This document shows, one piece after another, positions 6,422-64,000 of a stretch of DNA of 64,000 nucleotides; the stretch's first letter is position 1, and each line of letters begins with the position of its first letter. Origin of the DNA: Mannheimia granulomatis (lineage in GTDB: Bacteria; Pseudomonadota; Gammaproteobacteria; Enterobacterales; Pasteurellaceae). The notes under the pieces are model-generated. The model worked only from the letters and a program-made list of their open reading frames with translations, ran no database searches and was not told where the DNA came from. Location of the stretch: positions 1,620,021 through 1,684,020 of the forward strand of contig NZ_CP016614.1 of the NCBI RefSeq assembly GCF_013377255.1, given 5' to 3'. The position numbers were made by a program, and so were the translations under genes.

Positions 6422-7051
6422 ATGGCACTTACAATTTATTTAGTCAGACATGGTAAAACCGTCTGGAATATTGAAGGTAGATTACAAGGTTCAGGCGATT
6501 CAGCTTTAGTAGAAGAAGGGATTAACGGAGCGAAAAAAGCCGGAGTTGCCCTTAAAAATATTCCATTTCGTGCTGCCTATTCCAGTATGCAAAAACGCGC
6601 CCAAGATACCGCTAACTATATTTTAGCAGAAAATGAGCTATCCAATATTCCCCATTTCCACCACTGGGGACTCAATGAATTTAATTTTGGCTCTTGGGAG
6701 GGCGTAAAATCTGTTGATTTACAAGAACATGACGAATATTGGGTAATGAAGCGCACACCGGCGGAATACCAAGCCCAAAGCAATGGAGGCGAGGTGTTTG
6801 AGCAGCTTTATCAACGCGTTACCAATGCATTTAACCACATTGCTGAACTGCATAAAAATGATCAGCATGTATTAATCGTCTCTCATGGCATGACGCTTAC
6901 TTTATTAACCGCAGTGTTAAAAGGTATTCCTTGGCAAGATTTCCGTAATGAAGAAAAACATTGCTTTGTGATCAACACCGCGATTACAAAAGTGAAAGTA
7001 GATAACGGTAAGGTTGAAGTTATTGATTTTAATAATACCGCTCATTTATAG
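6422..7051 (+). CDS. Histidine phosphatase family protein (phosphoglycerate mutase GpmB-like)
   Basis: LVRHGKTVWN catalytic RHG motif. Confidence 0.75.
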   Translation: MALTIYLVRHGKTVWNIEGRLQGSGDSALVEEGINGAKKAGVALKNIPFRAAYSSMQKRAQDTANYILAENELSNIPHFHHWGLNEFNFGSWEGVKSVDLQEHDEYWVMKRTPAEYQAQSNGGEVFEQLYQRVTNAFNHIAELHKNDQHVLIVSHGMTLTLLTAVLKGIPWQDFRNEEKHCFVINTAITKVKVDNGKVEVIDFNNTAHL

Positions 7052-7324
7052 CGAGCCAAATTAAAAAAATAAAAAGTAGCAATCATTTGTTGTGTTTTAA
7101 TCTCTCATTCATCAATAACAACTTAAAACATAATAAGCGGTCGATTTTCTGAAAAATTTCACAAAAAACTGCTATAAAATATGAAATTTCTAGTCAATTC
7201 ATTGCAAAATCGCTATACTTTATCGCCCTAAATTTTAGGTCGAAAAATGATCTCTCTTTTTAGAGAAATCATAGGAATTAAATAGCGTTAATTTACGCAA
7301 AAAATAACAATATAGAGGTTTTAA

Positions 7325-7888
7325 ATGTCAGCTCCAAATTCAGGAACTAACCCGGCTCCGCTCGGTTTATGCGGTTTTGCATTGACTACTTTTTTACTTA
7401 GCTTAATCAACAATGGCACATTCAGCGGTGAAAATGTAGGCTTAGTATTAGCAATGGGATTTGCATTCGGTGGTACAGCACAGATGATCGCAGGTATGTT
7501 TGAATTCGCTAAAGGTAATACTTTTGGTTTTACTGCTTTCACTAGCTACGGTGCATTCTGGTGGTCTTTTGCATTATTTAAAGTATTTTTCGCATCAACA
7601 GTATCGCCGGAATTTATCGGCTGGTATTTAGTAGCTTGGGGAACATTTACATTAATGATGTTTATTGGCACTCTTGCGAAAGCTCGTGCATTACAAGCGA
7701 TTTTCTTATTCTTAACCATTACATTCTACTTGTTAGCCGCAGGTGACTTTACCCATAACAGTTCGTTAACAAATATTGGTGGAAACTTTGGTTTATTAAC
7801 TGCATTCTGTGCATTCTACTTAGCCGCTGCAGATATTATCAACGAAAGCTTTGGTAGAACCATTTTACCAATTGGCGAACCGAAATAA
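7325..7888 (+). CDS. satP: Acetate/succinate uptake transporter, GPR1/FUN34/YaaH family
   Basis: NPAPLGLCGFALTTFLLS signature; six predicted TM segments. Confidence 0.85.
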   Translation: MSAPNSGTNPAPLGLCGFALTTFLLSLINNGTFSGENVGLVLAMGFAFGGTAQMIAGMFEFAKGNTFGFTAFTSYGAFWWSFALFKVFFASTVSPEFIGWYLVAWGTFTLMMFIGTLAKARALQAIFLFLTITFYLLAAGDFTHNSSLTNIGGNFGLLTAFCAFYLAAADIINESFGRTILPIGEPK

Positions 7889-7910
7889 TCTTTTTGTATT
7901 AAAAATTAAA

Positions 7911-7943
7911 AAAGCTGAATGTTGCTACATTCAGCTTTTTTAT
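7911..7943. terminator. Bidirectional terminator between satP and plsB
   Basis: AAGCTGAATGT-TGCTA-ACATTCAGCTT flanked by an A run and a T run. Confidence 0.7.
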
Positions 7944-7987
7944 TTCATCTCTAATTTGCAAATTTTAACGTAAAAATAACCGCTTGC

Positions 7988-10444
7988 TTACGCCTCTTTC
8001 TGAGTTTTTTTCTCAACTTCAATTTGCTCTGTTTTTTCCACTTCAAGTTTTACCATAGAACCTTGAATAGTTTGTTGAACTTCAATTGAAATTAAGCTAC
8101 ATAGCAAACTTTCCGTTTCTTTAACTTTTTCAACAACCAAATTATCTGAAGCATCGAAATATCCTTGCTCTTTTAAGCTTGCACTAAAGGTTGAGAAAAT
8201 TGCTTTATCAAAGAATTCCGGTGCGTTAATGCCGTGTAATACGGATAAACGCTGAGCAATCGAACTACTCTCTTTTTCCAAAGCACCTCGGCTGATTCCC
8301 GGCTGCTCGAGTAACACACTCAAGCTGATATAGTAGCGTTGTAAAATCTCACGCACGCCCGCAGAGTGCAGTTGTAGTGTACGGATATGCGGACGGCTAA
8401 TCATCAACATATCGCTTTCGTTTTTAATTACACCTTGGCGAACAAATTCTGCAATAATAGCTTCAATATGCTTGCTGACTTCCTCTTGTTTAAAATGTAG
8501 GAATAATTCAGCTTGTAAGAACGGATAAATTCGGTTTACTGCTTGAATTACCAAATCTTTTGAAATCGCTTCGTGGTGTAACACCATACTTGCCACTAAA
8601 GCCGGCAATACAAACAGATGCTGAACATTGTTACGATAATAAGTCATCAGTACGGCTGATTCTCTATCTAAACGAATCAACTCACCAAAACTATCTTTTT
8701 CAATGCAAACGCCTGAACGAGGCAATTGGATAACATGATTTAACATATCTTCCACAGACTCTTCGGGTAAAGTAACCTCTTTTGAATAAGGCACATTTCT
8801 AAATAACTGAACATAACTTTCCAGCTGTTCAATTACCTGCTCACGAGATAACGCACGCTGACGGGACGCTAATAAAGCAGAACCGACCAAGTTTTTCGCA
8901 TTTACCGCTGCCGCCTTATTAATATTGACCATCACTTGGTTTGCGATGTTATCTACAGCCTCATTTAACCATTTAGGACGATTATCCTCCGATGACTCTT
9001 TCCACTCAGGGAAATGTTGATTAAGGTAATTATTTACTTGAATCGGCTCACCAAAATTAACATAACCCTGCCCTAAATTTTTCAGTTTTTTAATCACACG
9101 CAACACCAAACCCGCATTCTCTTTCTCTTTGGCTGCACCGCGTAATTCTTTAGCGTAAGTATCTACTTCAAGCACATGCTCATAACCGATGTACACAGGC
9201 ACAATGCTAAGCGGACGATTTAAACCACGCTGAAGAGCCTGTAAGGTCATCGACATCATACCTGTTTTTGGTTCTAACAAACGTCCTGTACGAGAACGCC
9301 CCCCTTCGATGAAATACTCCACCGAATAACCGCGATAAAATAACTCTGCTAAATATTCACGGAAAATTGTAGAATACAGGCGATTTCCTTTAAAAGTACG
9401 ACGAATAAAGAATGCTCCCCAGCTACGGAAAATCGGACCTGCCGGCCAGAAATTCAGATTAATACCGGCAGCAATATGTGGTGGAACTAAACCTTGATGA
9501 TAAAGTAAATAAGATAAAAGCAAATAGTCCATGTGACTACGGTGACACGGCACATAAACAATCTCATGCCCTTCCAAGGCTAATTTACGTACACGATCAG
9601 CGTTTTTTACATTAATGCCTTGATATAATTTATTCCAAAGCCAACTTAACACACGATCTGCTACTCTTAAGCTCTCATGTTTTACATCTGCGGCAATTTC
9701 ATTAATAATTTTTTCAGCTTCTTTACGCGCTTTTTCCGGAGAAGATTTTTTAGCTTCTTCTGCAATGGCGGCTTGAATCACCTCAGAATTAAGGATTTTA
9801 TTAAACATTGCCTCACGATTAGGCAAACGAGGTCCCATTGCAGAATAACGTAATTTAGCAAAGTGAATTTTAGCTACCCTTGCCACTTTTTGAGCAATTT
9901 TTTCATCCGCTCCATGCTCGGTAACCATATAACGCAAAGATACCGCCTGAGAAAAACGGACAAAATTATCACGCCCCGACCAAATCATTGAAATAAAGCG
10001 TTGGAATGAGGTTAAAACCTGTAAATAGCGAGCATCTTCTTTACCCGGAGCTCGCCCCCATAACACAGAGACAGGCACTATTTGCACATCTAACTCTTGA
10101 TTTTCACGATGTAAATCTAAATAACGATAAAAAAGCGATTCTGTTTCGCTTTTTGCCCCCTTTGATTTAAAGAAACGGCGACCTTCGTCTAAAAAGACAA
10201 AACGGGGTAAAGTCTGACCATCAATCATATTATCTTGCAATGGATCGGGTAAATTTAATGCCAAACAGTTTTTTTGTAAAATCAATAAATCGGTTTGTGA
10301 GGTATATGGCAACACATAGACAATAGGTTGCTCAAGGTTGAGTGCCAATTCTCTTATAGGATCATTAGGAATAGCACGAGACTTCACTAAAAGTGAAAGA
10401 GGTAAATTTAATAGGGTTCGATAACAATTTAATAAGCCAGACAT
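7988..10444 (-). CDS. plsB: Glycerol-3-phosphate 1-O-acyltransferase PlsB
   Basis: 818 aa, colinear with E. coli PlsB, with the [12 protein letters not shown] acyltransferase motif. Confidence 0.92.
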
Positions 10445-11243: not shown

Positions 11244-11369
11244 AATATTATTAGGGTTAAAATGAATCCTCCCTACTACAGCCGATAATATCGAAAAGGG
11301 CGAATATTGATTCGCCCTACAAATTGCAAAAAAATAATAGAATTTGACCGCTTGTATCCTTTCTTCTCT

Positions 11370-52856: not shown

Positions 52857-54788
52857 TTAAACGTTCCCATTTTTAATATTTTCCAACTCTTCCCAACGCT
52901 CAAAGGCTTGCTCTAACGCGAGTTCTGTATCCGCAAGCTGCTGTAATTTCGCTTGAGTGTAAGCCTGATCTTTAGCAAAGAAATCAGCACTGTTTACCTC
53001 GGTTTGCAGAGCTTCAATTTCGGCTTCTAAGGCTTCCATTTTTGCAGGCAACTCATCCAGCTCACGTTGGTCTTTGTAAGAAAGCTTGACCTTTTTCGCT
53101 TCATTTTTTGGCTTTTCTTGCTTCGGTTGTTCTGCTGCAAGCGGTTCTTTTTTAGCGGAATTTTGCAAATTATCTGCACGGGTAGCGTGGTAATTATCTT
53201 GCTGCTGTTTCGCATCAAAATAGCCGCCGATATATTTATTCAGCACGCCGTTGCCTTCAAAGAAGTAGCACTCTTCCACCGTGTTATCAATAAATTGACG
53301 GTCGTGGCTCACCACCAGCAACGTGCCTTGATAATCGGCAAGCATCTCTTCCAACAGCTCTAGCGTTTCCACATCCAAATCATTGGTCGGTTCGTCCAGA
53401 ATCAATAAATTATTCGGTTTCAGCAATAATTTTGCCAATAACAAACGGTTACGTTCCCCACCCGACAAGGCTTTCACCGGGGTCATCGCCCGTTTCGGTG
53501 GGAAGAGGAAATCTTGCAGATAGCCCAACACATGGCGTTTCACGCCATTAACTTCCACATCTTGTTTGCCATCAGCCACGTTATCCATTACGGTTTTTTC
53601 TAAATCCAACTCAGCACGGTACTGGTCGAAATAGGCAACCTCTAATTTTGTACCGCAGCGAATTGAACCAGAAGTTGGCTGTAATTCGCCTAACAAGAGC
53701 TTAATGAAAGTCGTTTTACCACAACCGTTCGGACCAACTAAAGCAATTTTATCGCCACGTTGAATCGTTGCTGTAAAGTTTTTGAGCAACGTTTTGCCCT
53801 CAATTTCATAACTTGCATTTTCAAGCTCAAACACAATTTTGCCGGAGCGTGCAGTTTGGTCGAGCTGAATTTTCGCAGTACCTTGCACCTCACGGCGGTT
53901 ACGGCGTTCTTCCCGCAAGGCTTTTAACGCACGCACACGCCCTTCATTACGCGTACGGCGAGCCTTAATGCCTTGGCGAATCCAAACTTCTTCTTGGGCG
54001 AGTTTCTTGTCAAACAACTCATTTTGTAAAGCTTCAACCCGTAAATCTTCGGCTTTTTCTGCCAAATATTGATCGTAATTGCTCGGATAAGAAACCAATT
54101 TGCCGCGGTCTAAATCCACAATACGGGTCGCCATTTTGCGGATAAACGAACGGTCGTGGGAAATAAAGATGATCGAGCCTTTAAAATTGAGCAATAAATC
54201 TTCAAGCCACGTGATCGCTTCCACATCCAAGTGGTTAGTCGGCTCGTCTAATAATAAAATATCCGGATCAGCCACTAAGGCACGAGCAAGAGCGGCACGG
54301 CGAACCCAACCTCCCGATAATTCGCATAGGCGTTTTTCAGGATCAAGCTCCAATAATTTCAAGGTGTCTTGAATCCGATTTTCAAACTGCCAGCCGTTGT
54401 TATGTTCTAATTGGGCTTGAATATGGGACAATTTTGCCAACAACTCATCGCTGTAATTGGTCAGCATTTGCTGCGAAATGTGGTGATATTGCTTTAAAAG
54501 ATCACTTAAATGGGCGATACCTTCCGCTACATAGTCAAACACCGTATCTTGAATATGACGAGGTGGGTCTTGCTCAAGACGAGCCACCACAATATCTTTT
54601 TCAAAAATTAACTTGCCGTCATCAAGCTGCACTTCGCCGGCAAGCACTTTCATTAAAGTTGATTTGCCCGCCCCGTTGCGCCCGACCAAGCAAACCCGCT
54701 CGCCCGGCTCAATGTGTAATTCGGTGTGATCTAATAAAGGATGATCGCCAAAGCCTAAATAGGCGTTGGATAAATTAAGTAATGCCAT
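52857..54788 (-). CDS. uup: ABC-F family ATPase Uup
   Basis: Two ABC cassettes plus a C-terminal coiled-coil; 643 aa. Confidence 0.88.
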   Translation of the reverse strand: MALLNLSNAYLGFGDHPLLDHTELHIEPGERVCLVGRNGAGKSTLMKVLAGEVQLDDGKLIFEKDIVVARLEQDPPRHIQDTVFDYVAEGIAHLSDLLKQYHHISQQMLTNYSDELLAKLSHIQAQLEHNNGWQFENRIQDTLKLLELDPEKRLCELSGGWVRRAALARALVADPDILLLDEPTNHLDVEAITWLEDLLLNFKGSIIFISHDRSFIRKMATRIVDLDRGKLVSYPSNYDQYLAEKAEDLRVEALQNELFDKKLAQEEVWIRQGIKARRTRNEGRVRALKALREERRNRREVQGTAKIQLDQTARSGKIVFELENASYEIEGKTLLKNFTATIQRGDKIALVGPNGCGKTTFIKLLLGELQPTSGSIRCGTKLEVAYFDQYRAELDLEKTVMDNVADGKQDVEVNGVKRHVLGYLQDFLFPPKRAMTPVKALSGGERNRLLLAKLLLKPNNLLILDEPTNDLDVETLELLEEMLADYQGTLLVVSHDRQFIDNTVEECYFFEGNGVLNKYIGGYFDAKQQQDNYHATRADNLQNSAKKEPLAAEQPKQEKPKNEAKKVKLSYKDQRELDELPAKMEALEAEIEALQTEVNSADFFAKDQAYTQAKLQQLADTELALEQAFERWEELENIKNGNV

Positions 54789-54868
54789 AGTTTTCTATAT
54801 CAGAATGATGTTACAAATTTTAAATTGCTTGATTATAAAAGAAGGATGGGACATAACCCATATATACT

Positions 54869-57800
54869 TTAAGATAAAAATCCGCCAATCCCTTTAAACT
54901 TCTCTACAAAAGCCACGATTTTCTGAAAAACCGTCTGTTTTTTAGTCTTATATTGTGGATTTAACGGGCTCATTTTAGGTAGAAGATCATTTAAATCTGT
55001 CCCATTTTCGCTAGCATATTCTCGTTTGAGAGAGGTCATTATATACCGTTTTGCTGCATCTATATTTAAACTTTCGCTATCAATTAAGCTATCCGCTTCT
55101 CTTTTTTGCTCTTGCTGAGCAAAGCGGAAAAATTCATCAATGATAGTTGCTTTATCAGGAATTTTATCTAAATCGGTTTGATGGATAAAATCAACAACCA
55201 GACTTTCTTTTGCTCGATTATCAATGCTCGCACGAATTGTTCGGCGAATTTCTTCAATCAATGCTGGTTTGTTTTTGAGTTTCTTATTATGTTCAAAGAT
55301 CAACTCTAAAATATAATCTAAATTGATCTCTTGGGATTTTAATAGATCGACTTCAAAAACGACATCGCTCCAATCAATTTGAGATTTTTCCGCATTGCCG
55401 TTTTGAGTTTGTTTCCTTTTCCATTCACGAACATCGTTATAGGCAGAACGATAATCTTGTAGCTGCCTATCAGATAAAATCACATTATTGTTCGGAAGAT
55501 ATAGGCCTTCAGGCTCTTTCAATGCATTGTCTGGATATGTGGTGTTTTTTAATACGTAAAATTCATCGTAATTATGCAACACATTTTCCAAACGCAGATA
55601 CTCGCTAAATAGTTTGGTAAAGGCTTTTTTATCTTCCTCGGTGTCAAGCTGAGTCGGATCTGGGAATGTCATTTGTAGTGCCTTAACAACCTCTCGATAA
55701 CCTCGATGATAATTTCCATTAGTATCTTGATAACCGTCCATATATTCTTTGAAACTACGCTCTAATACGATATTTCGAGTATTTGTATTCCCAAACAAAG
55801 TAATGGCATCTATCGTATCTTGCTCTAAATTACGGAAAGTGACAATATTCCCGAATGGCTTTGTTGCATCATAAATACGGTTTGTACGGGAAAAGGCTTG
55901 TATTAAACCGTGATAACGTAGATTTTTATCCACAAATAACGTATTCAGTTTAGGGGCATCGAAACCGGTTAAAAACATGCCGACTACAATCAATAAATCC
56001 ACTTCTTGATTTTTAACTCTCATCGCCAAATCACGGTAGTAATTTTGGAATTCTTTGCTTTCTACTCCATAATTGGTTTTAAATAACTGATTGTAATCAT
56101 TGATTGCCGATGTCAAAAATTCTTTTGCTGAGCTATTCATTGCCGTTGGCTCAAAGGTTTCATCAACAATTTCACCTATCGCATTTTGTTCTTCATTGGC
56201 GGCAAACGAGAAAATCGTTGCAATTTTTAACGGATTTTGTACCGCTTGTTGTTGAATTTTGAACTGCTCGTAATAGGCTTTTGCCGCATCAACGGAACTT
56301 ACCGCAAACATTGCATTAAAGCCTTTGCCGGTGGTATTTAAGCGGTGTGTTTTTTGATTAAAATGGGTCAAAATATATTGGGTAATTTCCTCAATCCTTT
56401 TGGGGTGCAATAAGGCTTCTTTGGTTTCAAGTGCGGTCAGTTTTTCCGGATTTTTTTCTGTTTCAATATCTTGGAATTTCGGGCGAACATTATTGTAATC
56501 TACCTTAAATTTCAGCACTTTTTCATCACGAATTGCATCGGTAATCACATAGGAATGTAATTGTGAACCAAATACAGTTGCTGTTGTTTCCGCCCCTAAT
56601 GCATTATCGGCAAAAATCGGCGTACCAGTAAATCCAAACTGGCAGAATTTTTTAAACTTTTTCTTTAAATTCTTTTGGGCCTCGCCAAATTGAGATCGAT
56701 GACACTCATCAAAAATAAAGACGACCGGTTGAGAATAAATTGCCAAATCATTTTCAGATTTCATTAAATTATTGAGTTTCTGAATTGTGGTGACAATAAT
56801 TTTATTGTCATCTTTTTCAAGATTACGTTTTAAACCTAATGTACTTTCCGAACCATTTACACTATCAGGGGAAAAACGTTGATACTCTTTCATTGTTTGG
56901 TAATCCAGATCTTTTCTATCTACTACGAAGAACACTTTATCTATAAAATCCAATTCGGTGGCAAGACGTGCCGCTTTAAAGCTGGTGAGCGTTTTACCTG
57001 AACCTGTGGTATGCCAAATATAACCTCCGCTTTCTAAGTTTCCCCAATTTTTAGTTAAATGGGTATTTTGGATTTTCCATAAAATCCGCTCGGTTGCCGC
57101 AATTTGATACGGGCGCATAATCAATAATGTGTTGCTTACATCAAAAACCGAATAATTGATCAACACATTAAGTAGAGTATTTTTTTGGAAAAACGTAGCA
57201 GTGAAATCTTTTAAATCCTTAATCAGCGTATTATCTGATTTTGCCCAGTTCATCGTAAAATCAAAACTGTTTTTATCTCGCTTAGTGGTGTTGGCAAAAT
57301 AACGGGTATCTGTGCCGTTAGAAATAACAAAAACTTGCAGAAATTTAAACAGTGAATTTTCTGAATTGAAACTCTCTTTGCTATAACGATGAATTTGGTT
57401 AAAGGCTTCTCGAATGGCTACGCCACGCTTTTTCAACTCAATTTGGACTAACGGCAAGCCATTCACAAGAATAGTCACATCATAGCGATTAAGATATTCA
57501 CCTTTTTGTTCAAATTGATTGATAACTTGCACTTTATTACGAGCAATCTCTTTTTTATCTAACAAATAGATATTTTGAATCCGCCCATTATCAAACACAA
57601 AATCATAGATATGATCTTGATGAATTTTTCGGGTTTTCTCGATAATACTTTCTGAGGATTTATCGAGATATTCATCAACAAAACGTTTCCATTCCGAATC
57701 TAAAAAACGCACATTATTTAATTTTTCCAACTGCTCACGCACATTCATTAGCAATTTTTCTTGGCTATTTAAATCAGGGCGATATTCATAACCTTGAAAC

Positions 57801-57931
57801 TGCAAATCGGCGATCAGCTCTTGCTCTAAATCGGCTTCGGTTTGATAAGAACTTGGCTTCTCGATTGTTTCATATTTATCTAAAACGATGAAATTATTGG
57901 TTTCTGTGATGGGAGTTGTTTCAAGGTTCAT
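54869..57931 (-). CDS. hsdR: Type I restriction enzyme R subunit HsdR (type IC, EcoR124/EcoprrI-like)
   Basis: 1020 aa with SF2 helicase motifs ([28 protein letters not shown]) and an N-terminal nuclease domain. As I recall it, the sequence is close to EcoR124I-type HsdR. Confidence 0.9.
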
Positions 57932-59015
57932 TATTTACATCCTTCCAATAGCTATAATTATCAATTAAATGATTTAATAAATAGACTACAATATTCTTTT
58001 CAGCTTCTGTTGGCTCTGCCACTTCATCGTCGGTTAATGTTGAATGGCTAAATCGATTAACTTGTCTAGTATATAACTCTTTCTCATCTGGCAACAATTC
58101 AGACCATTTTGCATAACCCAAAAAGTTAGCAGTTTTTTCATAAAGATTTCGTAACAAAGTAAAGTGATACTTTTGAATCTCTCTATTTATAATAGCCTCT
58201 TCAATAGTCTTCTTTAAAAATAAATGATAAGAAAATGCTTTATTGGAATCTCCTTTTTTCTCATCTAGCTCAAAACTGCCATCATCATGCTTTTTAAGAA
58301 AATAACCATTTTTTAAACCTAATTCATTATATAAAACATTATAAAACAATGTGTTATGCGTAGAGATTACAAATTTTAAACCACTTACAGACTTAGTTAA
58401 ATCTGCTAAATCAATTGCTAATTGTATTAGATGATTTTCATCTAATGAGCTAACTGGATCATCTATAAAAATATACTGCAACTTATTAAAATCTTGAGTG
58501 GAACGATCACTCTCGTCCATTTTCAACTCTTCGATTACTGATTTAAGTAGCGAGTAAAAAACACTCCATACAAAATTACTTTCTTCTCCTTTTGAAATTT
58601 TAATATTATCTTCTACTTCATCATTACCTCTAGTAAAAGAAAAGGTAACTTCATTAAAGTCCTCGCTAAATTTTGGTGTCAGTTTATCATTGGTATAGCG
58701 TTGAAAATGAGTAATAATATTTTGGTCTTGAGCCTGATCTTTTAATACCCAGTTGGTGAAACTATTTGGCTGAATTTTCAACTTAGGCTGACTATCTTCA
58801 TTTAAATCATTATCCCAATAAAACAGATCTTCAGTAAATGCGTTATAGTAAAGAATGTCATTTCTTGCAAATTCACTATGATTCTTGGGGGAAACTAATT
58901 CTTTAAATGCTCTTGAAAGCCTTGTTTTACCTGAACCATTAAACGCGTAAATGAGTTGAACTTTCTGCTGTTTGTCCCTTAGCATTGTTGCAATTTCAGT
59001 CAAATCTTTACTCAT
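57921..59015 (-). CDS. prrC: PrrC-like anticodon nuclease (ABC-type NTPase N-domain + R-x3-E...H nuclease motif)
   Basis: Walker A FNGSGKT and Walker B/D-loop [13 protein letters not shown]-terminal LLRNLYE followed 31 residues later by RFSHS, matching PrrC Arg320-x3-Glu324...His356. Sits between hsdS and hsdR, as in the E. coli prr locus. Confidence 0.55.
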
Positions 59016-59030
59016 AATCTTACTACCTTA

Positions 59031-60317
59031 TTATTTAGGAAAATCCAACAACTGCTCCCGATAATACTCATACTGTTTCCGTCTTAACGCAATTTCTTTC
59101 GGTAATCCTTCGCTGATAGAATTAGTCAAGCGATCGAATTTATCTAAAATTTTGACAATTTTTTGTTGTTCTGTTAATGAAGGAACAGGAATCTCATATT
59201 TCAAAAAATTATTTGAATTAAGGCGAATGACTTTTGTTCCTTGTGCATATTTTTCTTTATATTTTGCAAAACGTTCTGTTTGCAATAAATAGGTAAGATA
59301 TTTTGTTTCTAAATCATTATTAGGTCTAAATGCAAACATATCACCTGAAAAAACTATTTCATCGCCTAACCAACCTAATGGTTTCATTACATCTTCAATG
59401 TTTTCACTTGTCCCCGCAATTAACACATCGCCTTTTCTGGCTTTTTTGAGTTTTTTGGCTAATTCAACAGAAACAAAAGACTTCGTTTTATCTGCAAAAG
59501 TACTATAATAAGTATAAATCTGCCCATAATGAATTGCAGGTACTCCACTTTCAGTAAAATCTTTTTTCTGTAATCCATTTCCACGAATTAACTCACCAAC
59601 TTCCCCCAAAGCCTTAAACACCACTTGACCACTGTGGTACAAGGCTTTGGTGATGTCATTATACCCCCCCCTATCTAAATCTTGCGGGAATGTCAATAGG
59701 GTTTCTCGGTAATATTGATATTGTTTTTTCCGCAGTGCTAATTCAGCTTCCAGCGTAGCTTCCAGCTCAGTGAATTTGTCAAGTGTTTTTACAATTTTTT
59801 CTTGGGTTGAGAGTGGGGGGATTGGGATTATTATTTTAGCTAATTCCTTCATTGGAACACTTTTAACCGTACCTCCAGCAGATTTACTTAAAAAATCTTT
59901 TCTAATGAAATCTATTTCAAAAAGATATAAAAGGAATTTAGGCAAAATTATATTCTTCTTTGGTTTTATGGCATAAACTCCTTCTTTGATATTCCAATTC
60001 CTAGGTTCTTTGTCAATCAGTGCTACATTTCCAATAGTCCCTGTTCCAGAAAATAAAATATCTCCAATTTCTAAATTAGAACGGTTATTACATAATTTCA
60101 ACGCTTCATCATTTAATTTATCAGTTTTATCAGTAAAAATGATTTTATGATTTTGTAATTCTCTAATTGTTACATAGTAATTAGTTGCATCAGGTGTATT
60201 TAATGTAAAAAATTGTCTTGGATTTAAACCTGTTTTTATCGAATGACAAACTTCCCCCAAAGGCTTCCACTCAACCTCAGCCCCATTTAATAATTTCTCA
60301 ATAATTTGATTACTCAT
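59031..60317 (-). CDS. hsdS: Type I restriction-modification specificity subunit HsdS (two target-recognition domains, type IC-like)
   Basis: Two variable target-recognition domains separated and followed by the conserved repeats ELALRKKQYQYYRETLLTFP and EIALRRKQYEYYREQLLDFP. Confidence 0.9.
   Translation of the reverse strand: MSNQIIEKLLNGAEVEWKPLGEVCHSIKTGLNPRQFFTLNTPDATNYYVTIRELQNHKIIFTDKTDKLNDEALKLCNNRSNLEIGDILFSGTGTIGNVALIDKEPRNWNIKEGVYAIKPKKNIILPKFLLYLFEIDFIRKDFLSKSAGGTVKSVPMKELAKIIIPIPPLSTQEKIVKTLDKFTELEATLEAELALRKKQYQYYRETLLTFPQDLDRGGYNDITKALYHSGQVVFKALGEVGELIRGNGLQKKDFTESGVPAIHYGQIYTYYSTFADKTKSFVSVELAKKLKKARKGDVLIAGTSENIEDVMKPLGWLGDEIVFSGDMFAFRPNNDLETKYLTYLLQTERFAKYKEKYAQGTKVIRLNSNNFLKYEIPVPSLTEQQKIVKILDKFDRLTNSISEGLPKEIALRRKQYEYYREQLLDFPK
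59664..59671 (-). repeat. G8 homopolymer in hsdS (C8 on the + strand), codons R-G-G of the DLDRGGYND segment at the start of the second target-recognition domain
   Basis: Read directly: ATACCCCCCCCTATC. Confidence 0.9.
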
Positions 60318-60320
60318 TTT

Positions 60321-60390
60321 GCAAATTTTCCTGATTTTTATACCGCTTGTTTTAGATTGTGGCGAATGTAATTCACCCCTACGATGATAA
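60321..60390. repeat. Direct repeat copy B (hsdS leader), about 70 bp, containing a USS core and a short hairpin
   Basis: GCAAATTTTCCTGATTTTTATACCGCTTGTTTTAGATTGTGGCGAATGTAATTCACCCCTACGATGATAA is about 85% identical to copy A. Confidence 0.8.
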
Positions 60391-60480
60391 CCTTTGATAA
60401 AATTTCAACCGTTTTTCAAGTCTTGACAATTTAAATTATTGACCTTTTGATCCATTTCAGTATAATGACCCCCAATAACT

Positions 60481-60530
60481 CCCCTAGCTTTGCCAACCCA
60501 CGAGGTTGGAACTACAAGGTTGGGGGCTTT
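60481..60530. repeat. GC-rich nested inverted repeat downstream of abi
   Basis: CCCCTAGC...CCAACCCACGAGGTTGG...GGTTGGGGG. Confidence 0.5.
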
Positions 60531-60534
60531 CTTT

Positions 60535-61446
60535 TTAGGCTTTCTGCCATAATTTCCACTGACTCAAATCTGTCACAATACCCATTTGTTGTAAATTAAT
60601 CGCATCATTTTCAACATTGGGAAATTCTTCCAAAAGTGCCAAAAATCTTGCTCCCCAAGTTGAATTTGGGCAAATCACATCTAACATACGCTTCATTAAA
60701 CAAAAATAGACAAAAGGCTGAGCAACATTAAGCTGTTTCCATTGTGCATCTTGTAAGCCTTTCAGATTTGCTTTGAAAATAATCGGCTTATTCCACAAGC
60801 GGCTATGATGAGCGGAGACATTTCGGATAAAATTAAAAGCGTGCAAATGCGTTTGTAAATGTTTCCCGTCTTTTAAGTGATAAATTTTGGCAATGCGGTC
60901 TTTATCTTTCGATAACATTCCCTTGTAAAGCATCGACATTGTGCCGAAATCCCATACTTCGCTGGCTGCCCAAATCGGTAAATCGCCATAATGTTCTAAA
61001 TGATGCTTAACAAAACTACTTTCTGATTCTCTATTGATTAGATTTTGATATTTATCTAACCATTTTTGATGTTCAAAGTGCGGTTCAAAATACTGTGATT
61101 TTTGATGAACTAATGGTTCATATTTACCTAATTCATAGGCAATACTCACTCTTAAAGCAATTTCAATACGTTCTAAAGCATCAAGTGCTAACTGTCTGAG
61201 CTTTTTGTCAAAAATATACAATGCTTTTACATCTTCAAAACGGCTATTAGGAATAAACTGATCTAGCCGATTTTTAGGATTGCCTGGATCTATTTGTCGA
61301 AAAGAATACAGATACCCACTTAGCCGATAATAACCAAGACTTTTCAAGTAGCCTAAAGCTTTCTTTTCGTCATTAATCAATAGCCCTCTTTCTTGTAAAA
61401 GATCGAGTTGTTCATTAAAACTTTTCCAAAGTTTCTGCTGCTTCAT
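60535..61446 (-). CDS. Abi_2-family abortive infection protein (AbiD/AbiF-like)
   Basis: N-terminal ...SFNEQLDLLQERGLLINDEKKALGYLKSLGYYRLSGYLYSF and the RNVSAHHSRLWN motif, both characteristic of Pfam Abi_2. Start set at MKQQKLW (ATG); the ORF track begins at an upstream TTG. Confidence 0.65.
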   Translation of the reverse strand: MKQQKLWKSFNEQLDLLQERGLLINDEKKALGYLKSLGYYRLSGYLYSFRQIDPGNPKNRLDQFIPNSRFEDVKALYIFDKKLRQLALDALERIEIALRVSIAYELGKYEPLVHQKSQYFEPHFEHQKWLDKYQNLINRESESSFVKHHLEHYGDLPIWAASEVWDFGTMSMLYKGMLSKDKDRIAKIYHLKDGKHLQTHLHAFNFIRNVSAHHSRLWNKPIIFKANLKGLQDAQWKQLNVAQPFVYFCLMKRMLDVICPNSTWGARFLALLEEFPNVENDAINLQQMGIVTDLSQWKLWQKA

Positions 61447-61460
61447 ATTTATAATTATTT

Positions 61461-61535
61461 GCAAATTTTTCTGATTTTTATACCGCTTGTTTTTATGTCT
61501 TAGGGCGAATATGATTCGCTGCTACGATGATAATC
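61461..61535. repeat. Direct repeat copy A (upstream of abi), about 75 bp, with a USS core and a GCGAAT/ATTCGC hairpin
   Basis: GCAAATTTTTCTGATTTTTATACCGCTTGTTTTTATGTCTTAGGGCGAATATGATTCGCTGCTACGATGATAATCC. Confidence 0.8.
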
Positions 61536-61595
61536 CTGATTTTGGGAATATTTATCTATTTTTGTAGGGGCGGATTATATCCGCCCTCTAATCAT

Positions 61596-63143
61596 TTATC
61601 CGTTTTCAATCTCCGCCACTATTTCATCAATTTCCCTCCGCAAGCGGTCAATTTTTGCCACCGTTTCACTAATTTCGGCATTGAGTTCAGTAATGTTAAT
61701 CACTTCTCGGGTATCTTTTTGTTCGACATAAGAGCTTACCGCAAGATTGTACTCATTATCCGCAATTTTGCGATTATCGACTGATTTTGCTAAATGATCC
61801 ACATCGGCTTTATCAGAAAAAAGTTGGAGAATTTCAGCAATATGCTCATCGGTTAGTACATTATTGTTGGTTTCTTTCTTAAACAGTTCGCTTGCATCAA
61901 TAAACTGGGTTTTTGTATCAGTTTTATGCTTGGAAAGCACTAAAATATTCGTTGCAATACTTGTGCCAAAGAAAAGATTTGGCGGTAGTGCAATTACGGT
62001 TTCTACAACATTTTGCTCAATGAGATATTGACGAATTTTTTGCTCTGCACCGCTACGATAGAAAATACCGGGGAAAGTGACAATCGCAGCACGCCCTTTT
62101 GCTGAAAGATAATTTAAGGCGTGCAGAATAAAGGCAAAATCGGCTTTGGATTTCGGTGCGAGAATACCCGCCGGTGCAAAACGCTCATCATTAATTAATG
62201 TTGGGTCATCAGAACCAATCCATTTAATCGAATAAGGCGGATTAGATACAATCGCATCAAAAGGTTTATCATCTTTTAATTTTGGGTTGATCAGCGTATC
62301 GCCCAATTCAATATGGAATTTGTCATAATTGATATTATGCAAAAACATATTCATACGAGCGAGGTTGTAGGTGGTATGATTGATCTCTTGCCCAAAGAAG
62401 CCTTCTTCAATCACGTGATCATCAAATTGTTTTTTCGCTTGTAGTAATAACGAGCCAGAACCACAAGCCGGATCATAAATTTTATTAACAGTAGTTTGTC
62501 CATATAAAGCTAGTTGTGCAATCAATTTAGACACATTTTGCGGAGTGAAAAACTCTCCACCAGATTTACCAGCATTTGCTGCATAGTTTGAAATCAGAAA
62601 CTCATAAGCATCACCAAACAAATCAATTTGATTATCTTCAAAACGACCAAAATCGAGTTCCGCTACGCCTTTTAATACCGCAGCAAGACGTTTACTTTTT
62701 TCACTGACACTACTGCCCAATTTACTTGATCTTGTATCAAAATCAGCAAATAAGCCTTTAATATCTTGTTCCGATGGATAACCTACAGCAGAACTTTCAA
62801 TAGCCTCAAAAATCTCAGCCAATTCAGTATTGAGTGCCTGATTTTGGTGTGCAGTTTTTGCTACATTTTTAAATAACTGACTTGGATAAATAAAATAGCC
62901 TTTGGTTTTAATCGCATCTTCTTTAATGCCAAATGCATCAATTTCTTCATCGGAATAGGTAGAATAATCAACACTTTCATCACCGTTAGCGATATATTCT
63001 GCAAAATTTTCACTAATAAATCGGTAAAACAATGTGCCTAATACATATTGCTTAAAATCCCAACCATCTACCGCTCCACGAACTTCGTTTGCAATTCGCC
63101 AGATTTGACGCTGGAGTTCTGCTCTTTGTTGAATAGTTGCCAT
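61596..63143 (-). CDS. hsdM: Type I restriction-modification methyltransferase subunit HsdM (N6-adenine, type IC-like)
   Basis: NPPYSIKW motif IV, AdoMet motif ([11 protein letters not shown]), N-terminal HsdM_N domain; 515 aa. Confidence 0.92.
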
Positions 63144-63174
63144 TTATTTGTTCCTAATATTACTCGTATACTAA

Positions 63175-63245
63175 AGCGGTCGAATTTCCCCAAATTTTTG
63201 CACATTGTTTATTTGCAAAATTCTCTGAAAAAACGACCGCTTGTT
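63175..63245. repeat. Inverted USS pair between gyrA and hsdM
   Basis: AAGCGGTCGAA ... ACGACCGCTTGTT. Confidence 0.8.
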
Positions 63246-63254
63246 TGAGTGAGA

Positions 63255-64000
63255 TTATTCTTCTGTTGATGTTTCTACATTTTCCGCGTTTTCAACTGCT
63301 TCGATGTTTTCATCATCTTCTTCAGGCTCGCACACTCGTTCTAAACTCACAACATGTTCATCTTCTGCGGTACGAATAATGCGAACGCCTTGGGTATTTC
63401 GTCCAACTAGGCTGACTTCAGCAACCCTTGTGCGAACTAGTGTGCCGGCATCGGTAATCAGCATAATTTGGTCGGTATCAAACACCTGAACTGCCGCAAC
63501 CACTTTACCATTACGTTCATTCACTTTGATAGAAACCACACCTTTTGTTGCACGAGATTTCACCGGATATTCGCCAATGACGGTACGTTTACCGTAGCCG
63601 TTTTGGGTGACAGTTAAAATATCGCCTTCGGTGCGAGGAATGACCAATGAAACCACGCGGTCGGTGTCTAGGCTCACGCTGGTTGAATCTTCCGCTTCCT
63701 CATTTTCAATTTCGATGATTTCTGCGTCTTCAATTTCATCACTTGAAATTTCGGTAGTAGCAAGTTTGATACCACGTACACCTGTTGCGGTACGGCCCAT
63801 TGCACGCACGGCTTTTTCTGCAAAGCGAACCACTCGACCTTGTGCCGAGAACAACATAATTTCGCTTTCGCCGTCTGTGATGTCCACACCGATTAATTCA
63901 TCGCCTTCGCGAAGTTTTAATGCAATTAGACCGCTTGATCTGACGTTGCTGAATGCATCTAACGAAACTTTTTTCACCACACCACTTGCGGTTGCCATAA
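63255..64000 (-). CDS. gyrA: DNA gyrase subunit A, C-terminal part (the gene's 5' end lies beyond the window end)
   Basis: Beta-pinwheel repeats ([16 protein letters not shown]) plus the acidic tail [22 protein letters not shown] typical of GyrA. Confidence 0.85.

Follow-up and report, generated by a model that had tools for sequence, protein, structure and literature searches.

An abi-small RNA cassette between two copies of the hsdS leader at the hsdM-hsdS junction of a type I restriction-modification operon in Mannheimia granulomatis

A 64-kb stretch of the Mannheimia granulomatis genome (contig NZ_CP016614.1, positions 1,620,021 to 1,684,020; hereafter the window) contains a type I restriction-modification (R-M) operon in which an abortive-infection-type gene, abi, lies between hsdM and hsdS. 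Comparison of this junction with related loci indicated that abi and a predicted small RNA (sRNA) gene converging on it form a cassette flanked by two copies of the hsdS leader, which has probably been exchanged at the hsdM-hsdS junction by ordinary recombination, the leader duplication being the scar of an out-of-register event. A preliminary description of the region had proposed that abi was a cassette bounded by a duplicated hsdS leader. This was confirmed: the cassette is a discrete insertion/deletion whose ends coincide with the leader copies. Each leader combines a hairpin of the repetitive extragenic palindrome (REP) type with an uptake signal sequence (USS).

Organization of the hsdM-hsdS junction

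The features of the junction are listed below in the direction of transcription of the operon, with window coordinates. REPIN refers to inverted pairs of REP hairpins.

61596-63143, minus strand: hsdM, gene for the type I R-M methyltransferase, 515 aa (Pfam N6_Mtase 7e-119, HsdM_N 5e-17).
61564-61588: outer REP hairpin, GTAGGGGCGGATTATATCCGCCCTC on the plus strand, left arm of a REPIN-like inverted pair with 61503-61525.
61458-61535, minus strand: left leader copy, with the 8-12 nt REPIN spacer TTATCATC, a GTAG-REP hairpin (61503-61525) and an extended USS (61458-61491, core 61482-61490).
61447-61457, minus strand: AT-rich 11-nt linker TAATTATAAAT between the repeat and the abi ATG; left cassette end.
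60535-61446, minus strand: abi, 303 aa, predicted gene for a HEPN RNase toxin of the AbiF/AbiD family (Abi_2).
60473-60536, plus strand: predicted sRNA of ~62 nt, convergent with abi, its U-run overlapping the abi stop codon.
60439-60466, plus strand: sigma-70 promoter TTGACC-16 nt-TATAAT, matching the consensus at 11 of 12 positions.
60394-60438: right cassette end, containing a degenerate palindrome; homology to the M. massilioguelmaensis cassette stops at 60394.
60318-60392, minus strand: right leader copy, with TTATCATC, a GTAG-REP hairpin (60360-60382), an extended USS (60318-60351, core 60342-60350) and AGGA.
59031-60317, minus strand: hsdS, gene for the specificity subunit, 428 aa (Pfam Methylase_S, PADLOC Specificity_I).

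The cassette spans 60394-61457 (1.06 kb) and consists of abi and the convergent sRNA gene. Its ends were located by comparison with the abi cassette of Mannheimia massilioguelmaensis, to which homology runs from about 61465/61457 to 60394. Neither a transposase nor an integrase was found in the cassette using the list of open reading frames (ORFs) and Pfam, and terminal inverted repeats were absent at 60394/61457. A palindrome located just outside the sRNA promoter (60412-60428) reads TTGTCAAGACTTGACAA in a second M. granulomatis strain, M. indoligenes and M. massilioguelmaensis; the window version has one mutated arm (TTGTCAAGACTTGAAAA).

The two direct repeats flanking the cassette were established by a repeat finder, pairwise alignment and a pattern search. 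They were found on the minus (coding) strand near the places where they had been described. The repeat unit measures 75-78 nt, and global alignment of both copies gave 65 identical columns out of 79 (82%, the earlier estimate being ~85%), with one gap of 3 nt and two of 1 nt. Identity was 97% along a 36-nt core (60318-60353 / 61458-61493) and 83% along the 30-nt hairpin block (60361-90 / 61504-33). The right copy abuts the hsdS ATG (60317), as proposed, and its similarity extends to 60398. The left copy had been placed flush with abi and with the hsdM stop; it ends 11 nt from the abi ATG (61446), and about 60 nt, including the hairpin 61564-61588, separate it from the hsdM stop (61596).

It had also been suggested that abi inherited an hsdS-like context for translation initiation, which the positions of the elements do not support. 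The Shine-Dalgarno-like AGGA sits 10 nt before the hsdS ATG, and the abi-side copy carries AGAA, 21 nt from an abi ATG that itself falls 11 nt past the repeat. An in-frame TTG within the repeat (61464) was considered as an alternative abi start and discarded, since abi homologues begin with MK(Q), and the residues that it would add are not conserved.

The duplicated leader is a composite of a REP hairpin and an extended USS

On the coding strand, both copies contain in the same order TTATCATC, GTAG with a GC-rich palindrome, a short spacer and ACAAGCGGT-ATAAAAATCAG[G/A]AAAATTTGCAAA. On the plus strand, each shows ACAAGCGGT, a hairpin of the GCGAAT..ATTCGC type and CTACGATGATAA, in agreement with the preliminary description. 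The repeat is more than a REP: it is the leader module of hsdS, made up of half a REPIN and one complete extended Apl-type USS abutting the hsdS start. The cassette is enclosed by two copies of the 3' part of this module, ~76-80 nt in length.

The hairpin of the repeat is a REP element. A GTAG followed by a GGGGYGAAT..ATTCRCC palindrome occurs at 60360-82, 61503-25 and 61564-88; those at 61503-61525 and 61564-61588 are inverted and separated by ~38 nt, a layout shared by six spacers of related loci. The assignment was made because of the GTAG tag, the inverted pairs and the presence, in related loci, of a homologue of REP-associated tyrosine transposases (RAYT) flanked by the same hairpins. 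This homologue (174-176 aa) is encoded between hsdS and hsdR in Histophilus somni (locus L015, 10620-11144) and Actinobacillus seminis (locus L011, 10474-11004); there, flanked by GTAG-GGGCGAAT hairpins, it sits where Mannheimia has prrC. It matched NCBIfam NF047646 (REP_Tyr_transpos) with E values of 1e-18 to 2e-19 and 68-70 bits, below the 80-bit equivalog cut-off, Pfam Y1_Tnp with 23.8 bits, and weakly TnpA-REP (PDB 4ER8, E 1e-4). No RAYT gene was present in the 64-kb window. Four REPs of this family occur in the window, three of them in the R-M operon and one at 11297-11320, and in related R-M loci the REP recurs in nearly every intergenic spacer. The 11297-11320 element, the sole family member outside the operon in the 64 kb, adjoins an extended USS in reverse order (USS and then REP). 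A role of the hairpin as intrinsic terminator was rejected: there is no T-run on either strand, and a terminator scan was empty.

The last 33-36 nt of the repeat are one complete extended Apl-type USS, formed by the 9-nt core ACAAGCGGT (60342-50 and 61482-90), an AT-rich segment 2 and segment 3 (AAAATTTGCAAA). The consensus of segment 3 is AAAATTTTGCAAAT for Actinobacillus pleuropneumoniae and Mannheimia haemolytica (Redfield et al., PMC1626085), and the match to it, GAAAATTTGCAAA, starts 21 nt after the core start in both copies. The window contains 25 such cores, one per 2.6 kb, most of them with a TTTTGCAAA-like sequence at the same distance. Since this is the background density, a USS in the repeat is to be expected and is no special sign of mobility, so the earlier use of the USS as evidence for shuffling by transformation was abandoned. 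Weaker repeat "copies" reported by the repeat finder at 56217 and 63212 were merely other USSs.

Comparison of the copies argued for a true duplication of the composite, as opposed to a chance neighbourhood of REP and USS, because the similarity continues through sequence that neither element constrains and because both copies share a derived motif. The former comprises TTATCATC and the variable USS spacer; this 16-17-nt spacer, ATAAAAATCAG[G/A]AAAA, is identical in both copies and different in the other 23 USSs of the window. As for the latter, both M. granulomatis copies have TATAAAAATCAG, and M. haemolytica, H. somni and A. seminis have TATAAAATCAAG. Searched with up to 3 mismatches, a 34-nt core pattern occurred at only these two sites in the 64 kb, with no matches in 100 shuffles. 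An exact 20-mer of the core, searched in one genome per species (185,579 genomes), was found only in M. indoligenes and in one chance match in Undibacterium, indicating that the composite is not a widespread element. This search was too strict for diverged leaders, which were recovered by blastn in fetched loci (designated L plus a number, with their own coordinates).

The hsdM-hsdS junction in related genomes

Twelve leader copies from six species aligned as one module, and upstream of hsdS the module (hairpin plus USS) is 85-94% conserved across genera. M. indoligenes and the second M. granulomatis strain also had the arrangement hsdM-leader-abi-leader-hsdS, and abi with both leader copies occupied the same locus in a further relative. 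The left copy shows decay: AGGA has become AGAA in the window and its hairpin arms are mismatched (GCAGCGAAT...ATTCGCCC), the USS core in M. indoligenes reads ACAATCGGT, and in the metagenomic locus L114 the copy is barely recognisable.

An empty site with a single leader, as predicted by the preliminary description, was found in M. haemolytica. In this species the same locus (gyrA-hsdM...hsdR-ABC-F) has an hsdM-hsdS spacer of 75 nt with one hairpin, one USS and one leader. The lone hairpin mixes left-type and right-type REP arms (GGGCGGAT...ATTCGCCC).

Other cargo does occupy this junction. Two near-identical metagenome genomes (L112 and L114), at the same site next to gyrA, share 97.9% identity until 9 nt short of the hsdM stop, after which they carry unrelated cargo: in L112, a gene for a 521-aa protein with SLFN_AlbA_2, HATPase_c_4 and Fic-like_C domains (6577-8142); in L114, abi (6637-7548). 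Homology returns at the USS leader and extends ~70 nt into hsdS; it is lost within the first target-recognition domain and regained in the middle of hsdS. Judging from these alignments, the pattern has the footprint of cargo replacement through homologous recombination, in which the 3' end of hsdM served as one arm and the leader with the start of hsdS as the other. H. somni and A. seminis have a Fic gene at the junction, M. massilioguelmaensis has abi plus rhuM, and Haemophilus influenzae has a DUF3800 gene plus one for a 180-aa protein. The rhuM gene of M. massilioguelmaensis is itself enclosed by leader copies, one on either side; a further USS-leader, decayed but correctly spaced, precedes abi.

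Leader copies that enclose no gene, an arrangement that had been regarded beforehand as evidence against the cassette, do occur in H. somni (L015, 8991-9265). The two copies lie 132 nt apart and enclose the first 51 nt of hsdS plus REPs, an intact hsdS following the second leader. We read this as a recombination scar; since H. somni has two copies without a gene, leader duplication appears to be recurrent and not specific to abi.

The leader plus hsdS also behaves as an exchanged module, as judged from its identity and its edge. The right copy and all of hsdS (60398-59030) are 92% identical to H. somni and A. seminis, hsdM and hsdR only 84-85%, and the 92% homology begins at 60398, the outer edge of the repeat. 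The hsdM-abi spacer (61458-61606) is in turn 84.7% identical to the REPIN plus leader that precedes hsdS in H. somni. The hsdS leader of H. somni (L015, 9188-9265; A. seminis counterpart L011, 8992-9057) carries a full Apl-type USS. As a member of the Hin-type USS clade (PMC1626085), H. somni probably acquired this leader horizontally. These sequence relationships suggest inter-genus transfer of the leader plus hsdS specificity module.

Flanking repeats were also looked for at other abi loci, where their length is not fixed (~76 nt here, 37-157 nt elsewhere). One case is the metagenomic locus L107 (61-143 and 1213-1295), where the start of the hsdR coding sequence occurs on both sides of a distant abi (33% identity): a remnant upstream and the intact hsdR directly downstream, 85% identical along 65 nt. 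Three more abi loci have flanking repeats of 37, 59 and 157 nt. The longest of them (L060, 120-276 and 1636-1792) is a 99.4%-identical direct repeat with operator-like dyads inside, and the abi gene that it flanks adjoins a TOTE-type AEP-helicase conflict-system gene.

The abi gene and its convergent RNA gene

The product of abi was identified by homology as a probable HEPN RNase toxin of the AbiF/AbiD family. It matched Pfam Abi_2 (6.8e-54; 183.4 bits, cut-off 25.6), PADLOC AbiD (5e-65) and, along nearly its full length, PbAbiF (PDB 8VZ6, E 1.3e-32). It conforms to the HEPN motif R-[NHD]-x-x-x-H with R208-N-x-x-A-H213; R208, N209, A212 and H213 were invariant in 12 homologues of 50-100% identity, and the motif aligns with the PbAbiF region of R210/H215 (PMC12373285).

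The second component of the cassette converges on abi. The predicted sRNA has a single-stranded 5' part (CAAUAACUCCCC), an interrupted hairpin of 18 bp and a U-run, and its fold has an energy of -25.4 kcal/mol (z -3.7). The pairing holds in 94.8% of the cells of a 13-sequence alignment that covers at least five genera, and compensatory changes affect 9 of the 18 pairs against 2.0 +/- 1.1 in shuffled alignments, a level reached in none of 500 shuffles; slid pairing registers collapse. A covariance model gave 17 matches with E<=1e-10, only one of them in the window; each lies immediately past the 3' end of abi, on the opposite strand. More distant loci gave weak matches at the same position. Promoter hexamers were present in all 17 loci (8-12 of 12 positions, 16-18-nt spacing), the spacer sequence diverging. 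The model also matched 3' of abi on a mobilizable plasmid of Moraxella osloensis, and the RNA is absent from the annotation of that record, the one annotated record examined; we consider the sRNA gene the most novel element of the cassette.

An Rfam scan of both strands of 60200-61700 (E<=10) gave neither the abiF motif RF03085 nor any credible family; the best match, RAGATH-32, scored 21 bits (cut-off 41.8) and was rejected, lying inside hsdS. Also rejected as a gene was a 50-aa plus-strand ORF (60447-60599), which begins upstream of the predicted -10 box and extends past the terminator.

The pair abi plus sRNA gene was found at hsdM/hsdS (Mannheimia, Actinobacillus minor, the Moraxella plasmid), hsdS/hsdR (H. 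influenzae) and nrdA/nrdB (Neisseria meningitidis). Everywhere abi is co-oriented with the host operon, with an upstream gap of just 6-20 nt. No minus-strand promoter was predicted between abi and hsdS or the right copy, so abi and hsdS are probably on one transcript. The unit is a toxin gene without a promoter of its own that relies on read-through from the host operon, together with an RNA gene predicted to be autonomously transcribed. In N. meningitidis (L027, 5001-6200) abi and the sRNA gene lie between the genes for the two ribonucleotide reductase subunits, and an inverted pair of sequences resembling DNA uptake sequences is located downstream of them. Searches for a vector gave no phage match, and plasmid homologues were only distant ones from Moraxella (64.5%).

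The convergent sRNA is probably the antidote or regulator of this abi clade. Upstream of the L107 abi there are ~165 non-coding nt, and its downstream side has no space for a convergent sRNA; its clade may for this reason use an upstream RNA.

Proposed mechanism and alternative explanations

The hsdM-hsdS junction is polymorphic, and according to the model that we favour, the cassette is a presence/absence and cargo-replacement polymorphism of this junction. Its homology arms would be the conserved hsdM 3' end on one side and, on the other, the leader plus the conserved first ~20 codons of hsdS. This fits the breakpoints observed, which fall at the hsdM 3' end and at the leader/hsdS 5' end, and the leader or gene-start duplications of variable length that accompany several independent insertions. 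Movement would occur by RecA-type recombination, with no transposase or integrase, and the incoming DNA would plausibly arrive via transformation, these being naturally transformable bacteria. A duplication would arise when one of the joins is out of register, either through a one-sided homologous join combined with an illegitimate one (homology-facilitated illegitimate recombination) or through a single crossover with a circular or concatemeric donor bearing a leader copy. Both routes are known to yield insertion-duplication products (PMC3240628, PMC3410848). Once inserted, abi would be transcribed by read-through from hsdM, and the repeats could later permit precise loss of the cassette. The event would be old, since the arrangement is common to two species and the copies are mosaic. 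Entry by a junction-duplicating recombination, as first proposed, is thus consistent with the breakpoints and the empty site; gain is not favoured over loss by these data, and the recombination route is a reconstruction.

Several observations weigh against this model. Neither a recombination intermediate nor a recent event is among the data, and the copies, 82% identical and mosaic, have a blurred history. The USS consensus by itself accounts for some of the resemblance between the two 36-nt cores. The 521-aa gene of L112 starts 4 nt past the hsdM stop, with no leader copy upstream, and no flanking repeat was found at the abi cassettes of A. minor, H. influenzae and N. meningitidis; duplication is accordingly not obligatory for cassette entry. 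Flanking direct repeats were present at 4 of ~72 metagenomic abi loci and at 0 of 66 control ORFs, a suggestive difference that is not significant. The empty site of M. haemolytica may be ancestral or may come from deletion between the repeats. With regard to the RNA, its transcription is a prediction, and the RF03085 motif carried by the upstream, same-strand RNAs of characterized AbiF systems is absent here.

Of the other explanations, we give some, though limited, credence to an ancestral abi arrangement. The M. haemolytica empty site would then be a deletion between the leaders, and the duplication would be older, for instance a tandem leader-hsdS in which the first hsdS was replaced by abi. 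The presence of abi and both leaders at the same locus in two M. granulomatis strains, M. indoligenes and a further relative agrees with this, as does the M. haemolytica hairpin, a hybrid of left and right arms as expected of a recombination product; moreover, the 51 nt of hsdS before the second leader of H. somni show that duplications of leader-hsdS 5' ends do occur. However, neither polarity is favoured by the data, the stretch from the left leader to abi shows no recognisable trace of hsdS, and the abi plus sRNA unit is mobile among unrelated junctions, which makes gain at least as plausible as loss.

It is unlikely that the duplication was kept or selected as a regulatory module, with the REP hairpin serving RNA stability or insulation and the AT-rich leader serving ribosome loading on abi and hsdS. 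The conservation of the module upstream of hsdS across genera, the retention of the left copy in three genomes and the lack of a predicted promoter between abi and hsdS are compatible with such a role, and hairpins could stabilise a shared transcript in segments. Against it, the left copy is decaying (the mutated USS core of M. indoligenes, AGAA in place of AGGA, the hairpin arm mismatches and the near-unrecognisable copy of L114), abi starts 11 nt farther from its leader copy than hsdS does, and abi cassettes elsewhere have 6-20-nt upstream gaps and no leader module.

Least probable of all is that the copies are independent dispersed elements, a REP beside a USS upstream of each gene: the REP does recur in nearly every spacer of these R-M loci and once more by a USS at 11297-11320, the core is one of 25 extended USSs, and the RAYT homologue of related loci could mobilise REPs, but the similarity runs without interruption through TTATCATC (8-12 nt 5' of the hairpin) and the USS spacer, element order and spacing are equal in both copies and opposite in order at 11297, both copies share TATAAAAATCAG, and the core is confined to two sites in the window, with its 20-mer in one other species representative.

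Relationship to known systems

That type I R-M operons can harbour defence genes is established (PrrC, DarTG2, Payne et al.; PMC12255303; 10.1101/2024.01.29.577857). Like the prr locus (EcoprrI hsdM-hsdS-prrC-hsdR) and other embedded loci, the operon described here has a co-oriented abortive-infection-type toxin gene inside, and like prr-type loci it also has prrC between hsdS and hsdR. The DarTG2 locus of an EPEC (enteropathogenic Escherichia coli) island offers a further parallel, a junction acting as cargo hotspot, which was proposed there for hsdS/hsdR (PMC12255303). The operon of the window differs from these loci in that its cargo sits at hsdM/hsdS, combines a gene of the AbiF family with an sRNA gene and ends at a duplicated REP plus USS leader. 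The leader-duplication signature is not described in 10.1101/2024.01.29.577857, where the word "recombination" has 0 occurrences, or in PMC12255303. The entry and exchange of cargo in type I R-M operons is hardly described, and the junction of the window provides a readable example that is found empty, with abi or with other cargo; cassette exchange by transformation is directly testable in Pasteurellaceae. The leader-duplication signature, with a REP and an extended USS at the exchange point, and the convergent sRNA linked to AbiF relatives go beyond the cited literature.

Insertion-duplication products (PMC3240628, PMC3410848) resemble the junction in their one-sided homology, the host sequence duplicated on both sides, the variable length (37-157 nt at other abi loci) and the lack of an element-encoded enzyme; here, unlike there, the process is reconstructed from the end products alone. 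The hairpins share with REP/REPIN-RAYT systems (PMC3733652, PMC3337134) the GTAG next to a GC-rich palindrome, the inverted pairs ~38 nt apart and, in H. somni and A. seminis, a position on both sides of a RAYT-like gene. They differ in their low density (four per 64 kb, three of them in the operon), in the absence of a RAYT gene from the window and in that the repeat studied exceeds a REP and includes non-REP sequence.

With regard to abi, the AbiF/AbiD/AbiD1 type III systems (PbAbiF-AbiFr, 8VZ6; C. difficile AbiF-RCd22, PMC12373285) have in common with the cassette the Abi_2 domain, the HEPN R-x4-H motif and a linked small RNA gene. Characterized AbiF antidote RNAs are encoded upstream on the same strand, contain the Rfam abiF motif and form type III toxin-antitoxin systems (PMC12373285, PMC13064643, PMC12737573), whereas the RNA gene of the window is downstream, convergent and overlaps the abi stop. 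This difference suggests that proteobacterial AbiF relatives may use an RNA partner encoded differently from the upstream antidotes.

Integron cassettes likewise carry promoter-less sense cargo in an expressed array, with a structured element at the 3' side, and are exchangeable at one site. The cassette described here, unlike them, has no integrase; its 3' element is an sRNA gene with promoter and U-run terminator and not an attC site, and its repeats are a host leader of variable length.

The txpA/RatA and bsrG/SR4 pairs of Bacillus subtilis are type I toxin-antitoxin pairs with convergent antisense RNAs overlapping at the 3' side, and their toxins are small membrane peptides. They share with the cassette a strong promoter and a short RNA, transcribed towards the toxin gene, that can pair with the 3' end of its mRNA; they differ in that the toxin of the window is a predicted 303-aa HEPN RNase, whose relatives are neutralised by RNA-protein binding and not by antisense pairing. 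AbiF is the family proposed as ancestor of Cas13, and for this reason the convergent sRNA bears on the evolution of RNA-toxin pairing.

More speculatively, and with considerable doubt, abi and the convergent ~62-nt RNA might together represent an undescribed AbiF-type RNA-antidote architecture, with the RNA downstream and antisense to the toxin 3' end. The same tentative proposal holds that the unit would be a promoter-less, enzyme-free mobile cassette colonising expressed operon junctions (hsdM/hsdS, hsdS/hsdR, nrdA/nrdB) of transformable bacteria by junction-duplicating recombination, with USS-bearing leaders as portable homology arms.

Neighbouring genes and other features of the operon

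The remaining genes around the junction are the following:

63255 onward, minus strand: gyrA.
57921-59015, minus strand: prrC-like anticodon nuclease gene between hsdS and hsdR (PADLOC PrrC 1.8e-140, Pfam AAA_13).
54869-57931, minus strand: hsdR (Pfam HSDR_N, SWI2_SNF2, T1R_D3-like, EcoR124_C 3.6e-70).
Downstream of hsdR, minus strand: ABC-F gene.

All ORFs of 52857-64000 were assigned (ABC-F, hsdR, prrC, hsdS, abi, hsdM, gyrA), and the gene order, entirely on the minus strand, is gyrA, hsdM, abi, hsdS, prrC-like, hsdR, ABC-F. The hsdM-abi-hsdS-prrC-hsdR segment is a type IC (EcoR124/prr-like) R-M operon with two embedded genes. HsdM of the window is 100% identical to a protein named from M. 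granulomatis in NCBI. HsdS has two Methylase_S stretches (2.4e-44), corresponding to two target-recognition domains, and the PADLOC PrrC match spans residues 3-362 of the prrC-like product.

The hsdS-hsdR slot is a second variable site of the operon, with a 364-aa PrrC in the window and AAA_13 proteins of 430-490 aa elsewhere (the genes compared were L004, 10949-12415, and L005, 9845-11314). The DNA identity of the gene in this slot is ~68% between strains or species, that of hsdR 80-92%. Between gyrA and hsdM, an inverted pair of extended USSs (63174-63242) has 32-nt arms that are 75% complementary and is likely the gyrA terminator; it explains the weak third "copy" of the repeat core. In the hsdM-fic spacers of A. 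seminis (L011, 7650-7800) and H. somni (L015, 7655-7810) three tandem repeats of ~42 nt, ACTGATAGAAAATGGCATTTTTCTATCGATGAGA..ACAAT, were observed; each has an internal dyad, and they may be candidate operator sites of fic.

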